NCBI GenBank assembly: GCA_949298065.1
Contig: CASFUZ010000014.1
Location: forward strand, 5,395 to 69,394
DNA: 64,000 bases
Reading direction: 5' to 3'
Source of the DNA: an uncultured Pseudomonadota bacterium
GTDB lineage: Bacteria > Pseudomonadota > Alphaproteobacteria > RF32 > CAG-239
Shown: in pieces, positions 17,740 to 32,176 of the stretch
Layout of the letters: every line of letters starts with the position of its first letter
How positions within the stretch are numbered: position 1 is the stretch's first letter
The notes under the pieces: model-generated
The model's database searches: none
What the model was told of the DNA's origin: nothing
Seen by the model: only the letters and a program-made list of their open reading frames with translations
Translations under genes and position numbers: made by a program

Positions 17740-18016
17740 CACTAACGATATGCACATTGGAAGCATCGCGATTCAGTAAAGACTGTAGCCACAGCCAGTG
17801 ATGCGGTCAAGCTGGCAACAGCTTGAAGCATTGCGGTTCAACAAAGGTTGCCATCGCAGCCAGTGTTCGCTCAAGAGCGTTTCCTTGTCAAGCTGGCTAC
17901 AGATAAAAAAAACCAGAGTACATGGTGCTATCGTGCGATATGTACTCTGGAAGCATCGCGGTTCAACAATGATTGCCACCACAGCCATTGATGCGGTCAA
18001 GCTGGCTACAGCTTGA
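17740..18016. repeat. intergenic repeat array: three copies of a roughly 68-bp unit (ggaagcatcgcgRttca...ccacagccaKtgatgcggtcaagctggcWacagcttga) plus an 11-bp perfect inverted repeat (ccagagtacat...atgtactctgg)
   Basis: Copies at about 17759-17826, 17827-17902 (diverged) and 17949-18016; the last copy overlaps the final codons and stop of rfbB. Confidence 0.8.
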
Positions 18017-19022
18017 GCTTTTTCAGGTACCAGTCTACAGTCTTAACAATACCCGTATCAAAGTTTTCATCAGCTTTCCAACCAAGTTGTGTTGTGAGCT
18101 TGGTTGCATCAATAGCATAACGACGGTCATGTCCCGGACGATCTGAAACAAAGACGATTAAGTCTTTATAAGAACCACCATCCTTCTTCGGGCACTTGCT
18201 ATCCAAAATAGAACAAATAGCATCAACAATCTGCAGATTGTTGCGCTCATTATGCCCACCGATATTATAAGTCTCACCGGACTTACCATTATGGAAAATC
18301 AAGTCAATAGCTTTGCAGTGATCCAAAACATAGAGCCAATCGCGAACATTTTTACCATCGCCGTAAATCGGAATATTTTTGCCGCTTAGAGCATTGGAAA
18401 TAATTTTGGGAATAAGCTTTTCGGGGTGCTGTTTCGGACCATAGTTGTTAGAACAGTTAGAAACCGTAACATTCATACCATAAGTGCGATGATATGCGCG
18501 CACCAACATATCCGAACTAGCCTTGGAAGCAGAATATGGAGAGCTCGGATCATAAGGTGTTGTTTCCTTAAAGAAACCTGTTTCTCCCAATGCGCCATAC
18601 ACCTCATCTGTAGAGATATGGTGGAAGCGGCAATCTTCATAACCGGCTTTAACCTTATGAGGAGCTTCCATCCAAGCATTACGAGCAACATCAAGCAACG
18701 TAAAGGTACCGACAATATTTGTTTCAATAAACGCCTTCGGACCGGTAATAGAATTATCCACATGGCTTTCTGCCGCAAAGTGAATAACACCTCTGATATC
18801 ATTTTCGGCAAAGAGTTTTTCAATCAAAGCTCTGTCACAAATATCACCCTGCACAAACTGATAATTTGCACAGTCTGCACAATCGGAAAGATTATCCAAA
18901 TTTCCGGCATAGGTTAACTTATCCAAATTGATGACCTTATATTCCGGATATTTCTTGGCAAAATAAGGTACGAAATTCGCACCGATAAAGCCGGCACCGC
19001 CGGTAACTAGAATAGACTTCAT
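18006..19022 (-). CDS. rfbB: dTDP-glucose 4,6-dehydratase
   Basis: Start at MKSILVTGGAGFIG (GGAG RBS). SDR extended-family motifs. YSASK catalytic YxxxK. Confidence 0.9.
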   Translation of the reverse strand: MKSILVTGGAGFIGANFVPYFAKKYPEYKVINLDKLTYAGNLDNLSDCADCANYQFVQGDICDRALIEKLFAENDIRGVIHFAAESHVDNSITGPKAFIETNIVGTFTLLDVARNAWMEAPHKVKAGYEDCRFHHISTDEVYGALGETGFFKETTPYDPSSPYSASKASSDMLVRAYHRTYGMNVTVSNCSNNYGPKQHPEKLIPKIISNALSGKNIPIYGDGKNVRDWLYVLDHCKAIDLIFHNGKSGETYNIGGHNERNNLQIVDAICSILDSKCPKKDGGSYKDLIVFVSDRPGHDRRYAIDATKLTTQLGWKADENFDTGIVKTVDWYLKKLKL

Positions 19023-19057
19023 ATTATTCTCCATAAAGTTTAATATTAAAATTTTTA

Positions 19058-20182
19058 CTAATCATATTCTCCCCCGAAAATCCGCGGATAATTGGCAAAA
19101 CGCTGAAAATATCTTTCCACCAACTCATCTACAACAATATCAGGCTTAGTTTCATCCACAACAGCCTCAATTTCAGAAAGTTTCTTTAACCCTGCCGCCG
19201 CATAAAAAGAATACGCAAAGGTCTTGTTAACATAAGGCATCAACGCCTCTGCAAAAGAATCACTCCACATCAAAATCCTTTGCGGATATTTCTTATTGCT
19301 GGCCACACATTCCTTAACAGATTCTATTTTAGAATTAGCTTGACAGTTTACGGAAATATCCGGCAAATAATCAACCTGATAGGCAAACTCCCGAGCCCCT
19401 ACCTCCATATCCATATCTCGCAATTTTCCTTTAGCTATATTCATATCTCGCAAATCAGGAACGGATACTTTTACACCTAAACCAACCAAACCAGAAGCTA
19501 AAGCATCAAACCCGACATAAGCACCAATATTATTCCAGTGCGTATCTTTTTTGAAATACAGATTTTGCTCAACTTTTTCTTTGGCAGCCAATATCACAGG
19601 CTTCGCATTAACAATTTCAGCTTTAACATGCTTTTTCAAATATTCAACAGCCTTATCCATCCGCGAAATATCTGATTTTCTGATTCTCTGCATTCTTTCC
19701 GGCATAAATTCGGAATAAATATTTTCCTTATTCGGAGCCACAAAAATAACATATTTTATACCGCGTTTAGCATAGAAATCATATGCCATATTGATACCTT
19801 CAACCATTTTGGCCAAATCATCATCATCAAAATAAACTTCGGCATAATAGTCAACCAACGTATTTCCGTTGTTAGCCTTAATAGAATCATAAAAAATCCA
19901 ACCATCTTGACCATAAAAATACTGCCCCGTATCAATATTCAAACTACGCTGTAACTTAACATATTTTGAAATAATTTTTTTGCGTCCGGCAAAAGTATCA
20001 TTATAATAAGCTTCAAATTCTTTTGCAAAATTTCTGGTAAACTCCGTAGGCTTTTCATTAAGCGGACGATTATCCATAATTGCCGTATTTGTATAAAACA
20101 AATTAGCCGCAAACGGATAAAAAACCATCACTAACATCAAAACTGCCGGAAGCAACATATATAAGCGAACAAATCTTAACAT
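19058..20182 (-). CDS. AlgJ/AlgX-like (SGNH-like) polysaccharide O-acetylation protein, N-terminal membrane anchor
   Basis: Conserved VAPNKENIYSEF and KKDTHWNNIGAYVG motifs shared with the paralog at 30851-32176; adjacent to an MBOAT gene (AlgI/AlgJ-type pairing). Confidence 0.6.
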   Translation of the reverse strand: MLRFVRLYMLLPAVLMLVMVFYPFAANLFYTNTAIMDNRPLNEKPTEFTRNFAKEFEAYYNDTFAGRKKIISKYVKLQRSLNIDTGQYFYGQDGWIFYDSIKANNGNTLVDYYAEVYFDDDDLAKMVEGINMAYDFYAKRGIKYVIFVAPNKENIYSEFMPERMQRIRKSDISRMDKAVEYLKKHVKAEIVNAKPVILAAKEKVEQNLYFKKDTHWNNIGAYVGFDALASGLVGLGVKVSVPDLRDMNIAKGKLRDMDMEVGAREFAYQVDYLPDISVNCQANSKIESVKECVASNKKYPQRILMWSDSFAEALMPYVNKTFAYSFYAAAGLKKLSEIEAVVDETKPDIVVDELVERYFQRFANYPRIFGGEYD

Positions 20183-20184
20183 AA

Positions 20185-21588
20185 TCAGAACCTGAAATAA
20201 ATAAACGGATTATATGTATTGCTGGCCAATAACAAGATGCTGAAATATGCAATCACAGCACAAAATGCCGGATTAACAGCCTTGAGCAACACATTTCCCC
20301 AATTCTCATGTTTCAAAACAGCAAAAACTTTCTGGTAAAGCATTACACCAAAGCCACAAGAAACAAAAGCCAACACCGCAACATAAACAAACTCGTTAGA
20401 TAAATATTTGCTGTAAGATTCCATATCAAAAGGCACAAACATTCTGTTCAAATACCCCCATGCAGCACCCAAAGTTTCTGCACGGAAGAAGACCCAAGCC
20501 ACAATAACAATCAGCAACGTATAAATACTCTGCAGCAAGCGAAACCTCAAAAATTTTTCAATCGGAAAAATTCGCTCCAAGACCAAGAAACAGCCATGAA
20601 ACAACCCCCAAATCACAAAGTTCCAACTCGCGCCATGCCACAAACCTGTCAGGAAAAACACAATCATCAAATTCCGATAAGTTTTTAGCGTCCCTTCTCT
20701 GTTTCCGCCCAACGGAATATACAAATACTCCTTAAACCAAGTGGAAAGAGAAATATGCCACCGCCGCCAAAAATCTTTAATAGAAGTTGCGGTATAAGGA
20801 TAATTAAAGTTCTCATGAATCTGGAAGCCAAACATCTTCCCTAAACCGATTGCCATATCCGAATATCCTGAAAAATCAAAATAGATTTGGAACGTATAGG
20901 CAATAATGCCAATCCATGCGGCAGGTGTGCTCAAATCATTAAGCCCCAAAGCAAAAATCTCATCGGCAGTTTTGGCCATAATATTAGCGATAATAACCTT
21001 TTTAGCCAAGCCTTGTAAAAAACGAACAGCCCCCTCATTAAACAAAGGCAAAGTAACCTGTCGTTTATCAATCTGACTGGCTATATCATAATATTTCAAA
21101 ATCGGACCGGCAATCAACTGCGGGAAGAAAGAGATAAACAAGCCCATTTTGATAATATTTCTCTGCGGCTCGCAAACTTTGCGATAAATATCCACCAAAT
21201 AAGAAATAGATTGGAAAGTGTAAAAAGAAATACCAATCGGCAAAGGCAAATGCTTAACCTCGACCTGCAGACCAAAGATTGCATTCACATTTTCCGTAAA
21301 GAAACCGGTATATTTGAAAACACCCAATAAGGCTAAGTTTACAAACACAGCCCAAAACAATGCTCTTTTGCGTTTATGTTCTTCTGCCGCACCGATTTTC
21401 AAACCACAAAAATAGTTTATGATAATAGATAAAATCATCACAAAAACATAAACCGGCTCGCCCCAAGCATAAAAGAACAAACTCGCAACCAACAAAATCA
21501 CATTGCGATATTGCTCTTTAGCAAGAAAATATAACGTAAAAACAACAGGCAAAAACAGCCATAAAAATATTAAGGAACTAAAGACCAC
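20185..21588 (-). CDS. MBOAT-family membrane-bound O-acyltransferase (AlgI/DltB-like), paralog 1
   Basis: 467 aa, polytopic, conserved MBOAT His region (LWHGASWNFVIWG). Paralog of 29433-30839 (same N-terminus pattern, identical C-terminus NTYNPFIYFRF). Confidence 0.85.
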   Translation of the reverse strand: MVFSSLIFLWLFLPVVFTLYFLAKEQYRNVILLVASLFFYAWGEPVYVFVMILSIIINYFCGLKIGAAEEHKRKRALFWAVFVNLALLGVFKYTGFFTENVNAIFGLQVEVKHLPLPIGISFYTFQSISYLVDIYRKVCEPQRNIIKMGLFISFFPQLIAGPILKYYDIASQIDKRQVTLPLFNEGAVRFLQGLAKKVIIANIMAKTADEIFALGLNDLSTPAAWIGIIAYTFQIYFDFSGYSDMAIGLGKMFGFQIHENFNYPYTATSIKDFWRRWHISLSTWFKEYLYIPLGGNREGTLKTYRNLMIVFFLTGLWHGASWNFVIWGLFHGCFLVLERIFPIEKFLRFRLLQSIYTLLIVIVAWVFFRAETLGAAWGYLNRMFVPFDMESYSKYLSNEFVYVAVLAFVSCGFGVMLYQKVFAVLKHENWGNVLLKAVNPAFCAVIAYFSILLLASNTYNPFIYFRF

Positions 21589-22414
21589 TGTTCAACTTCT
21601 CCACGCAATCTTTCAAACTTTCCGACCAATGCTTAATTTCTAAACCCAAATCCTCTTTGACTTTTCCTTTGTTTAAAACCGAATAGAAAGGACGTTTTGC
21701 CGGGGTTGGATAATCCTTGCTCTCAATAGGTTTAACTTTGCACTTCAAGCCAGACAATTTCATAATCTCAATGGCAAAGTCATACCACGAACAAACACCC
21801 TCGTTTGAAAAATGATACACTTCTTTCACGCCGACTTTGAGCTTAGGCAACATTGCCACAATGGCCTCTGCCAAATCTCGTGCATAAGTCGGCGTTCCGA
21901 CCTGGTCAAAGACCACGGTCAGATTTTCTCGCTCAGCTCCCAAACGGCGCATTGTTTTCACAAAATTATTGCCGAATGTAGAATAAAGCCATGCCGTACG
22001 TACCACAAAACAGCCGCTGGCTTTTTCCAAAACAGCTTTTTCTCCCGCCAATTTTGTAGCTCCATACACAGATTGCGGATGAGTTTCATCATCTTCTTTA
22101 TATGGTCTGTGTCCCAAACCATCAAAGACATAATCCGTTGAAACTTGTACCAAAGGCACACCTGTCTCCGCCAAATTCTTCGGCCCGTCCACATTAATTT
22201 TTTCAGCCAGCTGAGCATCACTTTCCGCTTTGTCAACAGCAGTATAAGCTGCACAATTAATAACCGCGCTGTATTTCTCCGGCTTAACAAAATTCTTCAC
22301 CGCACCGGCATCCGTAATATCCAACAACTCTCTATCTACATACTCAGCCGCATCACCCAAAATCAGGCGCAACTCATTTCCGAGTTGTCCGTTTGCTCCA
22401 ACAACTAAAAACAT
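21578..22414 (-). CDS. rfbD: dTDP-4-dehydrorhamnose reductase
   Basis: MFLVVGANGQLG Rossmann motif, RmlD-like length and motifs. Confidence 0.9.
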   Translation of the reverse strand: MFLVVGANGQLGNELRLILGDAAEYVDRELLDITDAGAVKNFVKPEKYSAVINCAAYTAVDKAESDAQLAEKINVDGPKNLAETGVPLVQVSTDYVFDGLGHRPYKEDDETHPQSVYGATKLAGEKAVLEKASGCFVVRTAWLYSTFGNNFVKTMRRLGAERENLTVVFDQVGTPTYARDLAEAIVAMLPKLKVGVKEVYHFSNEGVCSWYDFAIEIMKLSGLKCKVKPIESKDYPTPAKRPFYSVLNKGKVKEDLGLEIKHWSESLKDCVEKLNSGL

Positions 22415-22950
22415 GTAACATCCTTCAAAAACGGTGCATTTTTATCTTTTTCTGACAAAATAGCCTCTTCCGGCTTAATCTTCCAATCCACATGGATATC
22501 TGGGTCATCAAAGCGAATACCGCCCTCAGATTCTTTGTTATAGACATTATCACATTTATAAGTAAACACAGCTGTTTCAGATAATACGGAGAATCCATGC
22601 CCGAAACCACGCGGAATCATCAACTGACGTTTATTTTCTGCAGATAGCTCAACAGCCACATATTTTCCGAAAGTCTTAGAACCTTTACGCAAATCAACAG
22701 CCACATCCCAAACTGTTCCTTCCAATACGCGAACCAACTTTGCTTGCGCAAACTCGCCTTTCTGAAAATGAATACCACGGATTGTGCCATATTTGGACAT
22801 AGACTGGTTATCCTGAACAAAATTGTACTTCAATCCAGCCTCATCCATTTTTTGCTTATTATAGCTTTCAAAAAAATAACCGCGGTTATCCTCAAAAACC
22901 TGAGGTTCAATAACATAAACCCCTTCTATCGCCGTGTTAATAATCTTCAT
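22405..22950 (-). CDS. rfbC: dTDP-4-dehydrorhamnose 3,5-epimerase
   Basis: Cupin-fold RmlC motifs (EGVYVIEPQVFEDNRGYFFESY, RGIHFQ). Confidence 0.9.
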   Translation of the reverse strand: MKIINTAIEGVYVIEPQVFEDNRGYFFESYNKQKMDEAGLKYNFVQDNQSMSKYGTIRGIHFQKGEFAQAKLVRVLEGTVWDVAVDLRKGSKTFGKYVAVELSAENKRQLMIPRGFGHGFSVLSETAVFTYKCDNVYNKESEGGIRFDDPDIHVDWKIKPEEAILSEKDKNAPFLKDVTCF

Positions 22951-23821
22951 GACTATCCTCATATACGCGTTTTAAATAACTCTTATAATCAACACCGTCT
23001 TTTAGTGCGTCAATAAGCTTAAGCATTTGGGCATCATCAATAAAACCGCGCTTATAGGCAATTTCTTCAACACAAGCAATTTTGAGATCCTGACGTTTTT
23101 CAATAATGCCGATAAAATTAGAGGCATCTAACAAAGATTGCGGCGTACCGGCATCAAGCCAAGCATTACCGCGTTTCATTGTAACCACATTTAAGCGACC
23201 CTCTTCCAAATACTCTTTGTTCAAATCCGTAATTTCCAATTCACCTCTGGCAGAAGGCTTCAATTTGCGAGCCTTTTCAACCACATCGGATTTATAAAAA
23301 TACAAACCGACCACAGCATAATTAGACTTAGGCTGCTTGGGTTTTTCTTCAATGGAAATAGCTTTGTGATTTTTATCAAATTCAACCACACCGAAACGTT
23401 CCGGATCCGAGACATGGTACCCAAAGACCGTACCGCCGACATTTTTAGAAACCTCTTCGCGGAAGAGCTTTAGCTGTTCACCCATATAGAAGATATTATC
23501 TCCCAAAATCAAGCAAACATCATCATTACCGATAAAATCAGCACCGATGGTAAAAGCTTGCGCAATACCTTTCGGTTCATCCTGAACCTTATAGCAAATA
23601 TCCAAGCCAAGTTGTTTTCCGTCACCAAATAATTTTTCAATATTCGGCGTATCTTGCGGTGTGGAAATAATCAAAATCTCTCTGATACCAAACAACATCA
23701 ACGTTGACAAAGGATAATAAATCATCGGTTTATCATAAACCGGCAAAAGTTGTTTACTGGTTGTTTTGGTCAGCGGATAAAGTCTGGAACCGCTTCCTCC
23801 AGCTAAAATGATACCTTTCAT
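22937..23821 (-). CDS. rfbA: glucose-1-phosphate thymidylyltransferase
   Basis: Start at MKGIILAGGSGSRLYPLT (ATG 23819-23821, AGAGAGG RBS); RmlA motifs throughout. Confidence 0.9.
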   Translation of the reverse strand: MKGIILAGGSGSRLYPLTKTTSKQLLPVYDKPMIYYPLSTLMLFGIREILIISTPQDTPNIEKLFGDGKQLGLDICYKVQDEPKGIAQAFTIGADFIGNDDVCLILGDNIFYMGEQLKLFREEVSKNVGGTVFGYHVSDPERFGVVEFDKNHKAISIEEKPKQPKSNYAVVGLYFYKSDVVEKARKLKPSARGELEITDLNKEYLEEGRLNVVTMKRGNAWLDAGTPQSLLDASNFIGIIEKRQDLKIACVEEIAYKRGFIDDAQMLKLIDALKDGVDYKSYLKRVYEDSHEDY

Positions 23822-23912
23822 AACAAAAACCTCTCTTGTTACACAAACAGAATGGACGTATTTTATACCAGCTTTTCGGCAAAGCAATCTTTTTCCCTAT
23901 CATATTCACAAA

Positions 23913-25382: not shown

Positions 25383-25901
25383 TTATTTAGTAACTTCCCA
25401 ACTCTTGGAAAATTCCTCATCTTTAAACAAATTAGCCAACCCCGTAATTTGTTTTAAGCGCAACAACTCATCGGCTGACATTCCGATATTTCGGCAAATC
25501 CAAGAATCACTTTTCCCCATTTCCAAAAGCTCAGCCACAATATTACTCATCAAATCCACACTATGGCTGCCGCGTGCACGGTTATGCCTGATGGTTGAAG
25601 CCATTCTCTCCCCCAATTCTTTATCAATAACCACCACCGGCATTTTACCTTTTTCACGATTTCTGATTCTTTCACTGGTAAGCATTGTTGTAAAACGATG
25701 AAACCCATCCACGACAATATATTCGTCATTTGCCTTATCATAATAACAAACAATTGGCTGTGTAAAACCATCCTCCCAAATAGAAATTTCCAAAAGCTTC
25801 ATCTCCGGCGGAGCAACTTTGTTGGGGTTATAATCATTTGCTTTAATCTTTTCCAGAGGGATAGCTCTGACATTATAAACAGGACTGACAAATTCGCTCA
25901 T
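25383..25901 (-). CDS. ParB/Srx-like nuclease-domain protein (IbrB/YbdM-like)
   Basis: ParB N-domain pattern IPLEKIKANDYNPNKV...VVDGFHRFTT...HNRARG. GAGG RBS. Immediately downstream of the PAPS-reductase-like gene. Confidence 0.75.
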   Translation of the reverse strand: MSEFVSPVYNVRAIPLEKIKANDYNPNKVAPPEMKLLEISIWEDGFTQPIVCYYDKANDEYIVVDGFHRFTTMLTSERIRNREKGKMPVVVIDKELGERMASTIRHNRARGSHSVDLMSNIVAELLEMGKSDSWICRNIGMSADELLRLKQITGLANLFKDEEFSKSWEVTK

Positions 25902-25911
25902 TTACCCTACC

Positions 25912-27213
25912 TCATAAATTTTTATATTTTTCCATCAATGCCTTTTGTCTCAAATTTTGTTTTTGTGTTTGAGCAAAGCCCATATACTTACACAAATGAT
26001 CATTTTTCAATATACAAACAGCCATTCTTTTCCATGAGGGAATATCAATGGTAGATTTAATATCATCAGTATGATCCGGAGTTCCCAAAAACACAATTTT
26101 TTCTTTACTGCTTTTATAATTGCTCTTACCATTATGCCGAATAGGATAATTGCAAGCCTCCAATTCCTTAATAGCAGCATCGTCAACCACACCACCTTTT
26201 TTCCACCAAAACCTAATAGAGGTTTTAAACTTTTCAATATAATTTCGCCTCATTGAATCAGGTAAAGTTGCCAACAAAAACTTCACATAGCTACGCCAAG
26301 TATGCCCCGGCGGCAATTCAATCTTACGAGCACCCAAAGCATGAGAATTTCCATAAATTGCACCGAAATTTGCGCCCTGCACCCGAGACACGATGCGAAC
26401 CCATGTTGAGGGTTCCAAAACCCTATATAGATTAAGACTATCCTTGGCCGTTTCATGATAAGGACTGGCAACCCGCATCTGATGAATAGAAAGCCCTGCT
26501 TTCCAAAACAAATCATAAATCCGATTATAATCATAATCAAACTTACCATTGGCTATCCACACATCCTTTGTTGTCCAATCATACATTGGATAAGCGTTCC
26601 ACCAATTTTCCCCCATTTTCGTTGTCCACTGATTCCCTTTCAGAATAGTTTTACGGTCATTAGCATAAGCCCGATACCGATTAAGGGATTCATCGGCCCG
26701 AATACCGAGCAAACAAATTGTCTTCCCTTTCTTTTGTCTGGAATACCAATCACCAAACTCAGCATACAAATCTTCTTGTACCATTTTATAACGATAAAAA
26801 TCAAAAGGATTATTATCCATATTAATAATGTATGGCATTTTGGGCATAGGCCGCACCCACAAATTTTTCTGATCCGGATCCCAAGTATACCAATACATCT
26901 GATAATTACTAACTGCGCAACGAGACCCCATCGGCAAACAAACCCAATAAGGCTCAATATCGCTCATATTATTTTCAAACATTCTGGTAACAAAATCCGT
27001 TGTTGTCTGATATTGAGCCTCAAAATCCTGATGAAAAACACCAATTTTCTTGGTAATATTATTCCTTCGTTTGTAGCTCAAAACCATATTTAACAACAAA
27101 CCACTATCTTTGCCACCGGAAAAAGAAACATAAATATTATCAAAATTATCAAAAATAAATTTCAATCTTTCCTGCAAAGCCTCATAAACATTTTTTTCCA
27201 AATATTTCTTCAT
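25912..27213 (-). CDS. PAPS-reductase-like PP-loop ATP pyrophosphatase with C-terminal DUF3440-like region (IbrA/YbdN-like)
   Basis: PP-loop SFSGGKDSG. Start taken at MKKYLEK (ATG 27211-27213), preceded by a strong AGGAGG RBS. That ATG overlaps the upstream gene's TGA stop as ATGA. Confidence 0.8.
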   Translation of the reverse strand: MKKYLEKNVYEALQERLKFIFDNFDNIYVSFSGGKDSGLLLNMVLSYKRRNNITKKIGVFHQDFEAQYQTTTDFVTRMFENNMSDIEPYWVCLPMGSRCAVSNYQMYWYTWDPDQKNLWVRPMPKMPYIINMDNNPFDFYRYKMVQEDLYAEFGDWYSRQKKGKTICLLGIRADESLNRYRAYANDRKTILKGNQWTTKMGENWWNAYPMYDWTTKDVWIANGKFDYDYNRIYDLFWKAGLSIHQMRVASPYHETAKDSLNLYRVLEPSTWVRIVSRVQGANFGAIYGNSHALGARKIELPPGHTWRSYVKFLLATLPDSMRRNYIEKFKTSIRFWWKKGGVVDDAAIKELEACNYPIRHNGKSNYKSSKEKIVFLGTPDHTDDIKSTIDIPSWKRMAVCILKNDHLCKYMGFAQTQKQNLRQKALMEKYKNL

Positions 27214-28460
27214 AATGTCAAGGCCTCCTCCTTTGAAATCATACGACAAACATTAGACAAGACATTTCTTTTACGACTCAAATTTTGCCTGATAAGTTTA
27301 TCCAATCCCGTATTAATCCAAAGATTATAAACATTGATACTTTGTCCCGAATAAGACTGATATACATTATGCATACACTGCAACTTGCTTTTATAATCAA
27401 ATGTTTGAGAAAAATAAATAATATTATTGCAATTACACAAATCCAAACCTCTGGAATCCACCCCATAAGTAGAAAACATAATATTTATTCTTTGCCCAAA
27501 AAGCTTAACTGCTTTTTTCTTATTACTACGCCCGGACAAAATAACATACTTCCCTCTTTGGAGTAAACCACTTTCCACAAAAAAACTAATTTCATCAAGA
27601 TATTTAAGATATATAATAACTTTTTCATTACGCTCTAGAATTTCGTTAATTAAGCGAAACAAACCCTCTACCTTATTTTTAGCAAGAGTATAAATATGCT
27701 GAAAACGCTGCACGACCTCCATAAATACCACCTGCTCTTTATCTTGAAGAAAAGCATTTTTCTCTTCCTGATAACTATCCTCTTCTTTTTGTGTTAAATC
27801 AAAAAAAAGATCAATATAATTAAGATTAAAACGGTCTTCCAAATCACACTCAAAAATAAAAGGGCGCATTTGCTCAATCAAAATTTTTTCATTTTCCGGC
27901 TTTGACCATTTCCGAACTGTTCCATCATCATAAGGAGACAGATAAGTATTAAGAAACTGGCTCTCAGACATATTAAGCACAGAAGGATGCATAAACTCAA
28001 TCTGAGAATACAAATCTACCAACCCCTGTGTTAATGGCAAACTACTTAAAATCAGACGATAATCAAACATATTACGCATCAGCAGCAAACGCTTAGTCCG
28101 TCCGGCCTCAGTATTTTTGATTGTAATACTCTCATCTACCACACAAAAAACCCTGTATTTCTCAGCCAAAGAATAAAGCTGCAGATAATGCAAATCAGAA
28201 CAAGAAATATTTTCAATGGAAAAAAAATAAATTTCTTTTTTCAAGTCAATCAAATTTTCATCAATAATATCAGCATACCCCTTCCACGCTAAAAAAGAAG
28301 AAGGAGCAATCCACACCACAACATCTATCTCACCTTGTTTGTCTTTAACTAAATCCAGAGCCGCCTTAATCTTCTTGGAGCCCATCTTCATAAACAAAGC
28401 ACCCGCTTTAAGTCTTGATAATTTGGCGCTGGAAGATTCAAAATTGCAATCTTTATCCAT
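27210..28460 (-). CDS. minimal SNF2-family helicase-like protein with degenerate ATPase motifs (probable pseudo-ATPase)
   Basis: SNF2 motif Ia VVVWIAPSSFLAWKGY; motif II VFCVVDESITIKN (DExH-KN); motif III RLILSSLPLTQGLVDLYSQIEFMHPSVL; motifs IV-VI in the C-lobe (IMFSTYGVDSRGLDL...YQSYSGQSINVYNLW). Walker A replaced by KMGSKKI; Arg fingers missing. Confidence 0.7.
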   Translation of the reverse strand: MDKDCNFESSSAKLSRLKAGALFMKMGSKKIKAALDLVKDKQGEIDVVVWIAPSSFLAWKGYADIIDENLIDLKKEIYFFSIENISCSDLHYLQLYSLAEKYRVFCVVDESITIKNTEAGRTKRLLLMRNMFDYRLILSSLPLTQGLVDLYSQIEFMHPSVLNMSESQFLNTYLSPYDDGTVRKWSKPENEKILIEQMRPFIFECDLEDRFNLNYIDLFFDLTQKEEDSYQEEKNAFLQDKEQVVFMEVVQRFQHIYTLAKNKVEGLFRLINEILERNEKVIIYLKYLDEISFFVESGLLQRGKYVILSGRSNKKKAVKLFGQRINIMFSTYGVDSRGLDLCNCNNIIYFSQTFDYKSKLQCMHNVYQSYSGQSINVYNLWINTGLDKLIRQNLSRKRNVLSNVCRMISKEEALTL

Positions 28461-28463
28461 CTT

Positions 28464-28495
28464 TTATATCTGACTGAATTTATATCTGACTGAAT
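28464..28495. repeat. perfect tandem direct repeat 2 x 16 bp (ttatatctgactgaat) in the divergent promoter region
   Basis: Begins 4 bp upstream of the SNF2-like ATG; candidate operator/regulator site. Confidence 0.8.
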
Positions 28496-28697
28496 ATAGA
28501 ATATAAACAAAGTTTATTGTATATCAAGCCTTTCATATTTTCTAGCTGTAGCTTATATTTGTTAACAACTTACGCATTTTTACATGCATATATTTTTATC
28601 CCTTACAAAAAAACTGGATTTTTATAACAAAATCAATTATATATAGTAATATTATAACGGCAAGAGCCAAAAAAATTCATCAGGAGGAATTGGCCGA

Positions 28698-29297
28698 ATG
28701 ACTGATAACACCATTACTTGCACAAATTTTTATTCTTTGGAAGAAAACATTATCCATAACTTCACATCCAACAAAAAAGCTGAAATATTAGCACATACCC
28801 TAAAAGTTAAAGACAATGCGCTAGCCTTGGCTAAAAGATTTGTTATAGACTATGAACAAGCCAAAACGGCCGCACTTTTGCATGACATCAGCACACTTAT
28901 CCCTATTGAACATTATATTCCGATGGCAGAAGCTCTTGATTTAGAAATTTTTGCTGTAGAACGTGAAAACCCATATCTTCTTCATCAAAGAATATCTCGC
29001 ATTGTTGCGGTTGAAACATTTAATATTGTAGATAAAGAAGTTCTCAATGCCATCAACTGCCATACAACTCTGCGCAAAAATGCCACCAACTTAGATAAAC
29101 TTCTCTTCTTAGCCGACAAATTAAGTTGGGATAGCAAAGATACTCCGGCTTATATGCCTTTAGTAAAAAAAGCTGCAGAGGTTTCCTTAAATAATGCCAT
29201 CAAATGTTATTTTGAAAATCTGATGCTTAATAAAGATAAAATTAAAACCCCTCACCCTTGGCTTTTGGAAGCTTGGGAAGAAATTCATAACACATAG
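28698..29297 (+). CDS. HD-domain phosphohydrolase (YqeK-like)
   Basis: H...K...LLHDIS HD motif, further His/Asp residues (LLHQRIS, FLADKLS). Strong AGGAGG RBS. Divergent from the SNF2-like operon. Confidence 0.7.
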   Translation: MTDNTITCTNFYSLEENIIHNFTSNKKAEILAHTLKVKDNALALAKRFVIDYEQAKTAALLHDISTLIPIEHYIPMAEALDLEIFAVERENPYLLHQRISRIVAVETFNIVDKEVLNAINCHTTLRKNATNLDKLLFLADKLSWDSKDTPAYMPLVKKAAEVSLNNAIKCYFENLMLNKDKIKTPHPWLLEAWEEIHNT

Positions 29298-29338: not shown

Positions 29339-29439
29339 CTTCTTCTGAAAATCACGATTAATGCGGAAAGTTGTAGGCACTTAGGATTTTGAAAATTTTA
29401 AACGCCCAAATTTCCCATTAAGCGTGATTTTCCTAGAAG
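29339..29439. repeat. imperfect about 24-bp inverted repeat with about 52-bp spacer, each arm preceded by direct repeat ccaaatttcccatt
   Basis: cttcttctgaaaatcacgattaatg versus reverse complement cttctaggaaaatcacgcttaatg; lies between convergent HD and MBOAT-2 genes (overlaps MBOAT-2 stop). Confidence 0.7.
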
Positions 29440-30839
29440 CGGAAATAAATAAACGGATTATACGTTGACGATGCAAGAGATATGGTAGACCAATAAAAAA
29501 GGATAAAAATCCAAATATTAATGATACTACGCAATACCTTATGCTCATATTTTACGTAAAGCATATTTTTAAATATCGGTGCAGAACAAATAATTCCCAA
29601 AACCAACATTAAAATAAACTTATTATTGATACCAAAATCTACTTCTGTCAGAACTTCCGGTTGATTTAGCATAAACATCTGTTGTAAATAATCCCAAGCA
29701 TAATCCATATTAATGGAGCGAAAAGCCACCAGTCCCAAAACAAAGACAAGCATCGCATAGACATGCCTCAATGCTGATATATACTTACTTTCATCTTTAG
29801 GCTTGTGCCAACCGACAAACTTTTCAAAACAAATAAAGATAGCGTTCCAAACACCCCATAATACGAATGTCCAACTTGCTCCATGCCAAACACCGGTAAC
29901 TAAAAAGACCACAAACAAATTGACATAAGTACGCACCGGCGAAACCCTGTTTCCGCCAAGGGGAATATATAAATATTGTTTAAACCACGTTGCCAAAGAG
30001 ATATGCCATCTCTGCCAAAACTCAGAAATAGATTTGGAAATATAGGGATAATTAAAGTTTTCTAAAAACCGAAAGCCAAACATCCGCCCCAAACCAATAG
30101 CCATATCCGAATATCCAGAGAAGTCAAAATAAAGCTGAATAGCATAAGCAATAATTCCGAGCCAAGCATAGCCAAAGCCCAAAGTTTCTGGCTGTTGCAT
30201 AAAGATTCTATCAACCACAACAGCCAAAGTATTAGCTATCAAAACTTTTTTAGCCAAGCCGATAATAAAGCGTTTTAAGCCAAAAGAAACATCGGCAAAA
30301 GTAACTTTTCTGTCATCAATTTGCTCGCAAACATCATGATACTTAACAATCGGTCCGGCAACAAGCTGCGGAAAAAGAACAATATAAAGAGCCAATTTGT
30401 TAATATCGTCCTGAGCCTCAACTTCCCGACGATAAACATCTATCAAATAAGATATGGCTTGAAAGGTATAAAAAGAAATACCAATCGGCATAACCACATC
30501 AATAAAGTCAAGATTAAGCTGTAAAACCGCATTAACATTATCAACGATAAAATTAAAATACTTAAAATAAACCAGGAAACCCAAATCAACCAAAATCGTA
30601 GCTGCCATCGCCAATTTGCGTTTTTTATCATCCAAACATCTATCTACGATTCTGGCCCCCACATAAGTAACAACGATTGTCATAATCATAATTGCCAAAT
30701 ATCTGGGCTCGCCCCAAGCATAAAAGATAATGCTCGCCGCTAACAAGACATAATTTCTGATATCTTTTTTAGAGAGCAAATAAATGCTCATCACCACCGG
30801 CATAAACACAAACAAAAATGTCATAGAACTAAAAAGCAT
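29433..30839 (-). CDS. MBOAT-family membrane-bound O-acyltransferase (AlgI/DltB-like), paralog 2
   Basis: 468 aa; conserved His region VWHGASWTFVLWG; same C-terminus as paralog 1. Confidence 0.85.
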   Translation of the reverse strand: MLFSSMTFLFVFMPVVMSIYLLSKKDIRNYVLLAASIIFYAWGEPRYLAIMIMTIVVTYVGARIVDRCLDDKKRKLAMAATILVDLGFLVYFKYFNFIVDNVNAVLQLNLDFIDVVMPIGISFYTFQAISYLIDVYRREVEAQDDINKLALYIVLFPQLVAGPIVKYHDVCEQIDDRKVTFADVSFGLKRFIIGLAKKVLIANTLAVVVDRIFMQQPETLGFGYAWLGIIAYAIQLYFDFSGYSDMAIGLGRMFGFRFLENFNYPYISKSISEFWQRWHISLATWFKQYLYIPLGGNRVSPVRTYVNLFVVFLVTGVWHGASWTFVLWGVWNAIFICFEKFVGWHKPKDESKYISALRHVYAMLVFVLGLVAFRSINMDYAWDYLQQMFMLNQPEVLTEVDFGINNKFILMLVLGIICSAPIFKNMLYVKYEHKVLRSIINIWIFILFYWSTISLASSTYNPFIYFRF

Positions 30840-30850
30840 TTATTTTTCCT

Positions 30851-32176
30851 TTACTCTTCCGGAGCCTCAATTTTCATCAGACGATTAAGAAAACGCTCGC
30901 CGGTTGCAATAACCAACATATTTGGCGCAAAATTTTCAATATCTTCAGCCATATAGGGAATATCAAAATTTTTTCCATAACCGACATAAATATGCTGCAT
31001 TTCTTTAAAGCTTTCAGCCACATACCAATTCATCCGCAAGAACTGGCTATCTGCGTAAAAAATGGCCTTCAGTTTATTTGCGGGATTATCACTCACAAAG
31101 TCAAAAGTCTCAATCCGCAACTTTTTGTTTACGAACTCATGTTTTACAGCCGTCGTTTGCCTTTTTAAAGAAAAGACATCATAAGTCATATCTTCTTTAG
31201 GGAAGGTTGTTTTTGCATCAATTCCCAAAGCATTGGCAATATCCTCATCGGCACTAAACTGCGGTTCTATATTAAAATCAGCTTCTTTTAAAATCTTAAG
31301 CGACGGAAAATCTTTTTTAAGCATCTTCATCATCTCAAGATATGCAACATAAGCCCCACGATGGTTCCAATGTGTTCCTGTTTTATAATAAAGCAAATGG
31401 TCTTTTTTAGCCTTTTCCAAAGCCTTAATTGGATAAACCACCGGAATATCCGTCTCATTTTTCAAAAATTCATAAGCTTGTTCAATTTTAGCTTGTTCAT
31501 TGACTTTGACATAGCCATCGGGATAAAATTCACCATAAACACGTTCTTTATCCGGCACCAACATCAAATAGAGTTTAATATTTCTTTTTGCCAACCAAGA
31601 CTGCAGATTTTCCAAACGATATTTAATTTTAGAAAGTTCCTCATCATCAAACAAATACTTGTTACGGAACATATCTTCGGAGTTCCACCTTTTGGTAAAC
31701 AACCAATTTTCTTTGCCGGCCATGGCATCAAAATTCTTCAACTCATTATTAATTAGCAAATCAATCATCTTGCTGTTTTTAATAAACTGACGCCGACCAA
31801 AGAAACGATCATTAAACCAGTTTTCAAAATCCTTACCAAAATTATAATTTACTAACCCTGTTTCATCATCAATAAGCGGCACATATTTAGCCAAAGACCT
31901 ATTTTCCTGTACCGAAATTTCATCACGGTTAATATGCAAAATCGGCACAAACATAAAAGCCACAACACAAACCACAAAAACAATATCTATACGCGAATTA
32001 TTTTCAACAATCTTAAAACGCGCCAAATATTGCACCAACTTATAGCAAATCATATAAGAAAGTGTGATGATGATGATAAAAAGTTTATAATCAAAACCGA
32101 CATCTGTCAGATAAAGCCGATGTCCCCACAAGGTAAGCAACAGCGTCAGGATAATACTTATAATTAAACGTCGCAT
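30851..32176 (-). CDS. AlgJ/AlgX-like polysaccharide O-acetylation protein, paralog 2
   Basis: N-terminal TM helices; shares LVPDKERVYGEF and YKTGTHWNHRGAYVAY motifs with 19058-20182. Confidence 0.6.
   Translation of the reverse strand: MRRLIISIILTLLLTLWGHRLYLTDVGFDYKLFIIIITLSYMICYKLVQYLARFKIVENNSRIDIVFVVCVVAFMFVPILHINRDEISVQENRSLAKYVPLIDDETGLVNYNFGKDFENWFNDRFFGRRQFIKNSKMIDLLINNELKNFDAMAGKENWLFTKRWNSEDMFRNKYLFDDEELSKIKYRLENLQSWLAKRNIKLYLMLVPDKERVYGEFYPDGYVKVNEQAKIEQAYEFLKNETDIPVVYPIKALEKAKKDHLLYYKTGTHWNHRGAYVAYLEMMKMLKKDFPSLKILKEADFNIEPQFSADEDIANALGIDAKTTFPKEDMTYDVFSLKRQTTAVKHEFVNKKLRIETFDFVSDNPANKLKAIFYADSQFLRMNWYVAESFKEMQHIYVGYGKNFDIPYMAEDIENFAPNMLVIATGERFLNRLMKIEAPEE

Follow-up and report, generated by a model that had tools for sequence, protein, structure and literature searches.

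Analyzing a 64,000-nucleotide stretch of contig CASFUZ010000014.1 (positions 5,395 to 69,394, assembly GCA_949298065.1; hereafter the window) from an uncultured alphaproteobacterium, we found that the first gene of a three-gene operon encodes a two-lobe SNF2-fold protein that has lost most of the residues by which SNF2 ATPases handle ATP. The same degenerate state runs through a whole lineage of gut Alphaproteobacteria, in which the remainder of the protein is kept by purifying selection. We think it probable, though well short of certain, that this is a catalytically dead SNF2-fold protein, most likely a non-motor DNA-binding or adaptor subunit for the IbrA-like and IbrB-like proteins encoded directly downstream. 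The three genes, in window coordinates, are as follows.

27210..28460, minus strand: SNF2-like gene, ATG start, 416 amino acids (aa), first gene of the operon
25912..27213, minus strand: IbrA-like gene, 433 aa from ATG, PP-loop/PAPS-reductase-like domain plus DUF3440
25383..25901, minus strand: IbrB-like gene, 172 aa, ParB/Srx-fold protein

The protein has a two-lobe SNF2 fold

The assignment of the 416-aa protein to SNF2 is well beyond chance. Pfam SNF2-rel_dom matches it at 4.9e-7 (29.6 bits, cut-off 24.9) over residues 105-232 only, which leaves the motif I region outside, and Helicase_C, the lobe 2 profile, falls just below its gathering score (21.9 bits versus 23.5); canonical relatives of the same family carry a precomputed PF00271 match. 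The PHROG family phrog_62, "DNA helicase," matches at 7.7e-38, and sequence searches of the PDB lead to Mot1, SsoRad54, Ino80, and Snf2. An AlphaFold2 (AF2) model built with 96 homologs as input has a mean pLDDT of 81 and a pTM of 0.72, and Foldseek aligns it with probability 1.00 and TMq 0.72-0.78 to the ATPase cores of Mot1, ISW1, Ino80, CSB, and Rad26. A first-pass annotation of the window, made from its sequence without database searches, had read the gene as a SNF2-family core and named profile alignment and structure prediction as the way to check it; together they return the two-lobe SNF2 fold.

The same annotation had described a minimal core with a short N-terminus and no accessory domains. 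This is indeed the case and is a family-wide trait, with homologs of 407-450 aa, and the size of the protein fits an IbrAB-associated minimal SNF2 subfamily of ~400-450 aa. The open reading frame (ORF) starts at the first start codon past an in-frame stop, leaving no room for further upstream extension. An N-terminal truncation or a missed upstream start was rejected, since the ORF is bounded by this stop and canonical relatives are equally short, with their Q motif at position 7.

Nucleotide-contacting motifs are lost and no longer constrained

Motif equivalences were fixed by alignment to canonical relatives and to Ino80, and residue counts compare 70 degenerate-clade loci with 8 canonical loci. 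All strings quoted in the first-pass annotation were located in the translation, and its central claim, a degenerate Walker A together with degenerate arginine fingers, is borne out by both alignments. The relevant positions are listed here.

Codon 7 (Phe7), 28440..28442, minus strand: Q-motif glutamine position; canonical Gln at position 7, Phe7 in the window protein
Residues 25-31, 28368..28388, minus strand: KMGSKKI, degenerate motif I/Walker A; canonical MGTGKT, window protein MGSKKI (second P-loop Gly to Lys, Thr to Ile, Lys30 kept)
Residues 47-62: VVVWIAPSSFLAWKGY, string quoted in the first-pass annotation
Residues 107-116, 28113..28142, minus strand: VVDESITIKN, motif II region; DESITIKN in both the canonical and the window protein
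Residues 135-143, 28032..28058, minus strand: RLILSSLPL, degenerate motif III; canonical LILNGTP, window protein LILSSLP (NGTP to SSLP)
Residues 135-162: RLILSSLPLTQGLVDLYSQIEFMHPSVL, string quoted in the first-pass annotation
Residues 331-341, 27438..27470, minus strand: STYGVDSRGLD, degenerate motif V; canonical YGVGSxG, window protein YGVDSRG (G335 to Asp)
Residues 361-373, 27342..27380, minus strand: QCMHNVYQSYSGQ, degenerate motif VI, both arginine fingers gone; canonical SMHRIYRIGQ, window protein CMHNVYQSYS
Residues 364-373: HNVYQSYSGQ, arginine-finger region

Canonical relatives show little or no variation at Q7, G29, T31, N139-G140-T141, G335, R365, R368, G370, and Q371, all of which are unconstrained in the degenerate clade. 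All 8 canonical loci, and every canonical protein in one alignment, have Gln at position 7, whereas the commonest residues there in the degenerate clade, Leu and Arg, reach only 11/70 each. The second P-loop Gly has become K, E, or R in 61/70 degenerate loci, and the Mg-ligand Thr has become I, V, L, or M in 67/70. In motif III, N-G-T is invariant among canonical relatives, and the degenerate clade has S at 139 with 140-141 variable; likewise, canonical relatives conserve the motif V glycines Gly335 and Gly338, positions at which the degenerate clade varies freely. The Ino80 profile alignment places DRAHRLGQ over HNVYQSYS, so that both motif VI arginines are gone: N365, Q368, Y370, and S371 of the window protein replace R, R, G, and Q, which are present in 8/8 or 7/8 canonical loci. 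Across the degenerate clade, Arg365 and Arg368 (8/8 canonical) give way to S/N/C/D and to Q/N/S, respectively.

Some positions are retained. All 70 degenerate loci keep Asp109 and have K or R at position 30; Asp109, Lys115, and Asn116 are invariant or nearly so in both clades, and position 110 is E in 43, D in 19, N in 4, G in 3, and A in 1 of the degenerate loci. The ATP pocket of the window protein is thus crippled rather than erased, as the Walker A Lys and the motif II Asp-Glu remain, and Lys30 and Asp109 may have been retained as a structural salt bridge.

Among canonical relatives, conservation peaks in the motif columns (median pairwise identity 0.80 versus 0.67 elsewhere); in the degenerate clade, it is lowest there (0.34 versus 0.53). 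What the degenerate clade conserves is a different set of blocks: WIAP (Ia), DES-TIKN, YRLILS-PLTQGL-DLY, VIIY-K (IV), and FSQTFDYK. In SNF2 proteins generally, motifs Ia, IKN, IV, and QTFDYK are expected to contact DNA. With neither arginine finger left, and without the Mg-ligand Thr, the P-loop Gly, and the Q-motif Gln, the window protein has probably lost ATP hydrolysis. Despite its family fold and Pfam score, it does not deserve the name SNF2 ATPase or helicase, since its catalytic motifs are not those of one.

The degenerate state is shared across gut Alphaproteobacteria and the protein is under selection

A protein search yielded 246 homolog clusters, nearly all ~416 aa long, and a genome scan with one genome per species yielded 78 loci, ~70 of them from uncultured gut Alphaproteobacteria. 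The hosts of the degenerate loci, with which the window groups, are Candidatus Scatocola (Rhodospirillales), "Proteobacteria bacterium CAG:495," and "Azospirillum sp." metagenome-assembled genomes (MAGs). Loci closest to the window are 80-84% identical and have its flanking HD, CitMHS, and MBOAT genes in common, and a contig carrying a 97%-identical SNF2-like copy has the same neighborhood. Among complete degenerate-clade loci, just one lacks an intact ORF: in a single MAG (L075 5932-6759) it is cut to 275 aa, with the remaining similarity in another frame, through either genuine pseudogenization or misassembly.

Compared with the closest strain, the ratio of nonsynonymous to synonymous divergence (dN/dS) is 0.058 for the SNF2-like gene (dS 0.33), 0.015 for IbrA, and 0.023 for IbrB, and the SNF2-like value resembles those of neighboring housekeeping genes (0.03-0.06). 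In comparisons with more distant species, for which dS is near saturation, the ratios are 0.08-0.11, 0.02-0.04, and 0.014-0.065, respectively. The SNF2-like protein nevertheless diverges faster than its partners: within the degenerate clade, identity to the window proteins spans 74-94% for IbrA, 79-98% for IbrB, and 35-84% for the SNF2-like protein from lowest to highest. The ratio of SNF2-like to IbrA distance (Poisson-corrected) has a median of 2.87 in the degenerate clade versus 1.09 among the 8 canonical loci, and ~1.0-1.2 in the least-saturated canonical pairs. Judged from these sequence comparisons, constraint on the degenerate-clade protein is relaxed but real. The first-pass annotation had proposed examining orthologs for purifying selection on the degenerate state, and the outcome supports its reading: the state is common to ~70 species-level genomes, in which the former catalytic positions drift freely and purifying selection acts on the remainder.

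Canonical homologs form a sister clade

Homologs with canonical motifs (GxGKT plus arginine fingers) do exist, at 48-52% identity. When the ATPase motif columns were masked, a neighbor-joining (NJ) tree grouped all 77 degenerate sequences in a single clade, with a clade of 21 canonical sequences as its sister group; the latter include P0109, whose ATGKT tripped the degenerate pattern match and which keeps both motif VI arginines. A single loss event is the most economical reading of this tree and is not proven, as the tree has no support values. The two sister-clade members whose contigs were looked up, P0088 and P0097, both come from phage-like contigs, which carry holin, amidase, integrase, HNH, and Lar genes. 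The first-pass annotation had held that orthologs with canonical motifs would imply a local sequencing or assembly artefact. The canonical homologs found here do not signal an artefact, because they come from the separate sister clade or from other phyla and include no orthologs from the same lineage.

The SNF2-like gene is coupled to intact IbrA and IbrB genes

The order SNF2-like, IbrA, IbrB on one strand is found at every locus with enough sequence. The junctions and putative expression signals in the window are as follows.

27210..27213, minus strand: ATGA overlap, SNF2-like TGA 27212-27210 over IbrA ATG 27213-27211
27224..27233, minus strand: Shine-Dalgarno-like AAGGAGGAGG, read from the sequence, inside the SNF2-like 3' end and ~10 nt upstream of the IbrA ATG
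28500..28527, minus strand: candidate sigma-70-type promoter, TTGATA-16-TATATT, 10/12 matches in a consensus scan only

Translational coupling to the downstream enzyme gene, which the first-pass annotation had inferred from the window, is borne out by the ATGA overlap there, and the same 4-nt start/stop overlap recurs at 67/77 related loci. Most IbrA orthologs are called at 433 aa, and those on looked-up contigs begin at the overlapping ATG; a 445-aa IbrA ORF starting at TTG is therefore probably too long.

The IbrA-like protein matches Pfam DUF3440 (7.4e-78) and PAPS_reduct (1.8e-8) and PHROG phrog_2302 (2.9e-108). The IbrB-like protein matches PHROG phrog_2159 (3.8e-78) and Pfam ParB_N at 4.5e-5, a score of 23.8 bits that lies under the 26.3 cut-off. 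The IbrA PP-loop SGGKDS is invariant in 77 loci, and the IbrB DGxHR (DGFHR) and IRHNRARG motifs are invariant in 71 loci, in both clades, from which we take the two enzymatic partners to be intact. Among solved structures, none matched IbrA, and IbrB gave a match at chance level only.

Upstream of the operon, the window holds an exact 16-bp tandem duplication, two copies of TTCAGTCAGATATAAA at 28463-28494 on the minus strand, directly upstream of the SNF2-like ATG and downstream of the promoter-like site. It is strain-specific, since the nearest strain (L085 7984-7999) has a single copy.

The cassette is widespread, and motifs were lost a second time

A profile search against 1.8 billion representatives returned 241 clusters at E <= 1e-30 and 5662 at E <= 1e-10. 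Among the best 150, the full-length proteins are almost all minimal SNF2 proteins of ~400-480 aa with canonical Q, GxGKT, DExxxIKN, [NT]GTP, and RxxRxGQ motifs. The cassette with canonical motifs is also present in Streptococcus, Lactobacillus, Listeria, and Flavobacterium phage records, and Listeria monocytogenes lmo1309-lmo1311 is its counterpart (PMC5736727).

In canonical cassettes, the SNF2 gene is preceded by a fourth gene, a small ORF (80-130 aa) with its stop codon overlapping the SNF2 start codon; the encoded protein often ends in P-x-YNQEAIDELK, and Listeria has a positional counterpart. The small gene was located as follows.

L055 494-745
L061 5766-6008
L063 5712-5981
L068 5739-5999
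L071 5733-5981
L081 and L082 5751-6017
L079 3362-3751
L080 3825-4148
L090 20-322

A hidden Markov model (HMM) of this small ORF matches in canonical loci only, with no match in the window (28461-28697) or in ~72 degenerate alphaproteobacterial loci. The small protein belongs to no Pfam family and falls into PHROG families 5809 and 8389, both of unknown function. AF2 models it (pLDDT 81) as a small beta-barrel plus a helix at the C-terminus, for which Foldseek found no PDB match passing E = 0.1.

A second degenerate lineage, unrelated to the window clade, comprises P0214 (L088 271-1623), P0250 (L087 3355-4680), and P0253 (L089 5001-6338), which share 39-44% identity with one another and 23-25% with the window protein. 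It has lost motifs I, III, and VI independently of that clade. P0250 and P0253 both sit in a chromosomal setting with an IbrA-like gene after them, to which the P0253 locus adds a ParB_N protein; the 186-aa gene after the IbrA of P0250 has no Pfam match, and the contig of P0214 is too short to show neighbors. This lineage keeps a small upstream ORF that is not detectably homologous to the first small-ORF family, so the idea that loss of the small gene always accompanies motif loss was rejected. The idea that chromosomal domestication always leads to motor decay was rejected as well: the Listeria copy keeps canonical motifs and the upstream small ORF, and chromosomal location alone therefore does not imply decay.

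Comparison with known systems

The closest likeness is to the minimal SNF2 proteins of lmo1311-like and phage IbrAB cassettes, which share the family (30-52% identity), a length of ~400-450 aa without accessory domains, and the order SNF2, IbrA, IbrB with overlapping stop and start codons. These relatives keep the Q motif, GxGKT, NGTP, RxxRxGQ, and the small coupled ORF, whereas the window clade has none of them. We found no biochemical characterization of these relatives in searchable papers. The window protein also shares two RecA-like lobes (TMq 0.72-0.78) with the SNF2/Swi2 translocases SsoRad54, Mot1, Ino80, ISWI, CSB/Rad26, and RapA, and motifs Ia, II (DExx-IKN), and IV and the pre-VI block are recognizable in it. 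In contrast to these translocases, it lacks flanking targeting domains and the nucleotide-contacting residues of motifs Q, I, III, V, and VI, and ATP-driven translocation is not expected because those residues are missing and unconstrained.

Inactive Swi2/Snf2-like P-loop domains are retained in PglZ of BREX and DndH of Dnd and have been proposed to be binding or sensing modules (PMC12839542). Like the window protein, each is a SNF2-derived P-loop module without ATP-binding motifs, fast-evolving yet retained in a DNA-modification or conflict system. However, PglZ and DndH contain single shortened lobes fused to large effectors, while the window protein is a complete stand-alone two-lobe core with an identifiable active sister clade. 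Neither a dead SNF2 core that is both complete and stand-alone nor a mechanism for the cassette turned up in the searchable literature.

The partner pair resembles DndB-DndC, with the ParB fold (DGxHR) of IbrB, the PP-loop (SGGKDS, PAPS-reductase-like) of IbrA, and an NTPase partner as well (PMC10853773). On the other hand, IbrA scores 20.2 bits against the NCBIfam DndC cut-off of 290.4, and its PADLOC matches to DndC (4.3e-6) and BrxP (2.6e-4) are only partial. SspB-SspD and BrxP offer further ParB-fold/PP-loop-type parallels in DNA modification. No cysteine desulfurase, DndD/E, SspB/C, or restriction genes adjoin the window cassette. PADLOC hits of the SNF2-like protein itself are confined to the helicase core: ZorD at 5e-12, covering positions 565-884 of 908, and short stretches of DpdE and DrmD. 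The neighborhood of the SNF2-like gene contains no Zor, Dpd, or DISARM partner genes. Membership in a known defense system (ZorD, DpdE, DrmD; Dnd/BREX) was rejected, as the SNF2 matches are core-only, the DndC and BrxP matches are weak, and NCBIfam scores lie far below cut-offs.

The Escherichia coli IbrAB pair likewise joins a PAPS-reductase-like IbrA with DUF3440 to a ParB-like IbrB. In E. coli ECOR-9, as Sandt et al. are said to have described in 2002, IbrAB reportedly activates prophage eib genes. To our knowledge, no other phenotype has been linked to the pair. ParB-fold activators are also described for DNA-modifying enzymes, acting on double-stranded DNA (PMC13229309).

A probable non-motor subunit and its alternatives

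In the explanation we favor, a non-motor subunit for IbrA-IbrB, the ancestor would have been an active minimal SNF2 ATPase of a widespread phage and bacterial cassette (small ORF, SNF2, IbrA, IbrB). In one ancestor of the gut alphaproteobacterial lineage (Candidatus Scatocola and CAG:495 relatives), the ATP-handling residues, namely, the Q motif, the Walker A Gly and Thr, motif III, motif V, and both motif VI arginines, would have been released from constraint, and the small upstream gene is likewise missing from the degenerate lineage. Purifying selection would have persisted on the two-lobe fold, on the non-nucleotide motifs (Ia WIAP, IKN, IV, QTFDYK block), and on the C-terminal helix. Through the ATGA overlap, the SNF2-like protein would be made in fixed stoichiometric coupling with IbrA, and the non-translocating subunit would position the still-active IbrA (PP-loop ATP-pyrophosphatase-like) and IbrB (ParB-fold) on DNA. 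We infer that the SNF2-like protein binds DNA and forms a physical complex with IbrA and IbrB. By analogy with the systems above, our best guess is that IbrA-IbrB performs a DNA-directed modification or regulatory activity. A scaffold or regulatory subunit, which the first-pass annotation had also suggested, would be in keeping with the invariant synteny, the conserved coupling with IbrA-IbrB, and the intact partner motifs.

Several points weigh against this explanation. The idea of an adaptor that brings IbrAB to DNA draws on synteny and analogy. Retention of Lys30 (70/70 K/R), Asp109 (70/70), and, in the window, Glu110 may allow residual binding of nucleotide or phosphate. The NJ tree comes without bootstrap support, dS is near saturation in all but the closest comparison, the sequences are mostly MAG-derived, and the canonical genome set comprises just 8 highly diverged loci, so that rate ratios are compressed. 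In addition, E. coli K-12 ybdNM (YbdN/YbdM) is an IbrAB-like pair with no SNF2 gene mentioned alongside (PMC9068703), so such pairs exist without a SNF2 partner and the SNF2-like subunit may be accessory.

A broader and more tentative proposal, which we regard as possible but less likely, is that the SNF2 subunit of the IbrAB machine is switchable between an ATP-driven translocase and a static, fast-evolving DNA- or target-recognition subunit that acts as a neofunctionalized specificity reader. The translocase mode would operate in phages, Listeria, and other bacteria with the beta-barrel partner, and the static mode here and in the second degenerate lineage. DNA mobility, if any, would then come from a ParB-fold IbrB clamp, and the system with the dead SNF2 would be resident among housekeeping genes.

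Alternatively, the protein could act as a nucleotide-binding switch or sensor, in which nucleotide occupancy without hydrolysis gates IbrA-IbrB, as in pseudokinases. The conservation of Lys30 (K/R), Asp109, and, in 62/70 loci, an acidic residue (E/D) at position 110 is more than pure drift would leave. However, the adenine-reading Q-motif Gln has been lost with no consistent replacement, the P-loop Gly has mostly become bulky and charged and the Mg-ligand Thr has become I, V, L, or M, conservation along the protein is lowest in the motif columns, and a Lys30-Asp109 salt bridge could explain the retained pair structurally. We consider such a sensor improbable.

A role without DNA, as a regulator or assembly factor of IbrA-IbrB (inhibitor, antitoxin-like, or chaperone) that uses the SNF2 fold as a protein-interaction platform, seems to us similarly improbable. 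It would accord with the tight translational coupling to IbrA and with the fast evolution of the SNF2-like protein relative to two highly conserved partners, and guilt by association led a toxin-antitoxin survey to flag the IbrB/IbrA pair of Listeria (PMC7020466). However, the best-conserved blocks, Ia, IKN, IV, and QTFDYK, are non-nucleotide SNF2 motifs, and DNA contact accounts for their retention more readily than an arbitrary protein interface would.

Much less likely still is an active ATPase with a non-canonical site, whose missing residues would be supplied in cis or in trans by IbrA or IbrB. The window protein keeps Lys30, Asp109, and Glu110, and protein complexes can provide arginine fingers in trans. 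Yet no alternative residue is conserved clade-wide at any lost position, and the motif II Glu is itself lost in some orthologs (DN, DG, DA). Moreover, no compensating change is visible in the partners, since the lengths and invariant motifs of IbrA and IbrB are the same in both clades.

A sequencing or assembly artefact or a decaying gene retains virtually no credibility and was rejected: the 275-aa copy in L075 and a rate ~3 times that of the partners could be cited in its favor, but ~70 independent genomes and 246 database clusters have the same degenerate state, the ORFs are intact at ~416 aa, dN/dS is 0.06-0.11, and coupling to IbrA is conserved, in agreement with the earlier view that this is not a decayed pseudogene.

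Genomic neighborhood of the cassette

The cassette is set among housekeeping genes that differ between species. In the window its neighbors are rml genes, MBOAT/AlgX pairs, and a CitMHS transporter; in other species they are flagellar genes and MnmA, or MutL, PGI, and LpxK. The surrounding features in the window are as follows.

18006-23887: dTDP-rhamnose genes (rmlABCD-like)
19058-21588 and 29433-32176: two paralogous MBOAT plus AlgX-like (SGNH) pairs flanking the region, putative polysaccharide O-acetylation modules
28698-29297, plus strand: HD-domain protein, divergent and upstream, YqeK-like bis(5'-nucleosyl)-tetraphosphatase (TIGR00488, 83 bits, cut-off 70)

The HD gene is probably outside the cassette, as its synteny extends to the closest relatives only. 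GC content is 0.34-0.37 over 26-36 kb, compared with ~0.40-0.43 in the remaining window. Between the window and its closest strain, L085, dS within the cassette (25383-28460) is 0.33 for the SNF2-like gene, 0.58 for IbrA, and 0.75 for IbrB, much above the flanking genes (MBOAT 0.12, CitMHS 0.16, HD 0.28). The higher cassette values suggest recombinational replacement of the cassette between strains.

Implications for the SNF2-IbrA-IbrB cassette

Stand-alone SNF2 cores are normally defined by motor activity, and lineage-wide retention of the fold without the nucleotide motifs is uncommon. That the fold is kept under purifying selection points to an ATP-independent job. For annotation, it follows that "SNF2 family helicase" in these gut Alphaproteobacteria does not imply an ATPase. 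The active sister clade, the intact IbrA and IbrB, and the second, independent loss together provide a comparative series for the uncharacterized SNF2-IbrA-IbrB cassette, which ranges over phages, Listeria, Flavobacterium, and gut bacteria. If the SNF2 subunit is indeed switchable between motor and static modes, these lineages would constitute a natural separation-of-function series for a widespread three- or four-gene system.

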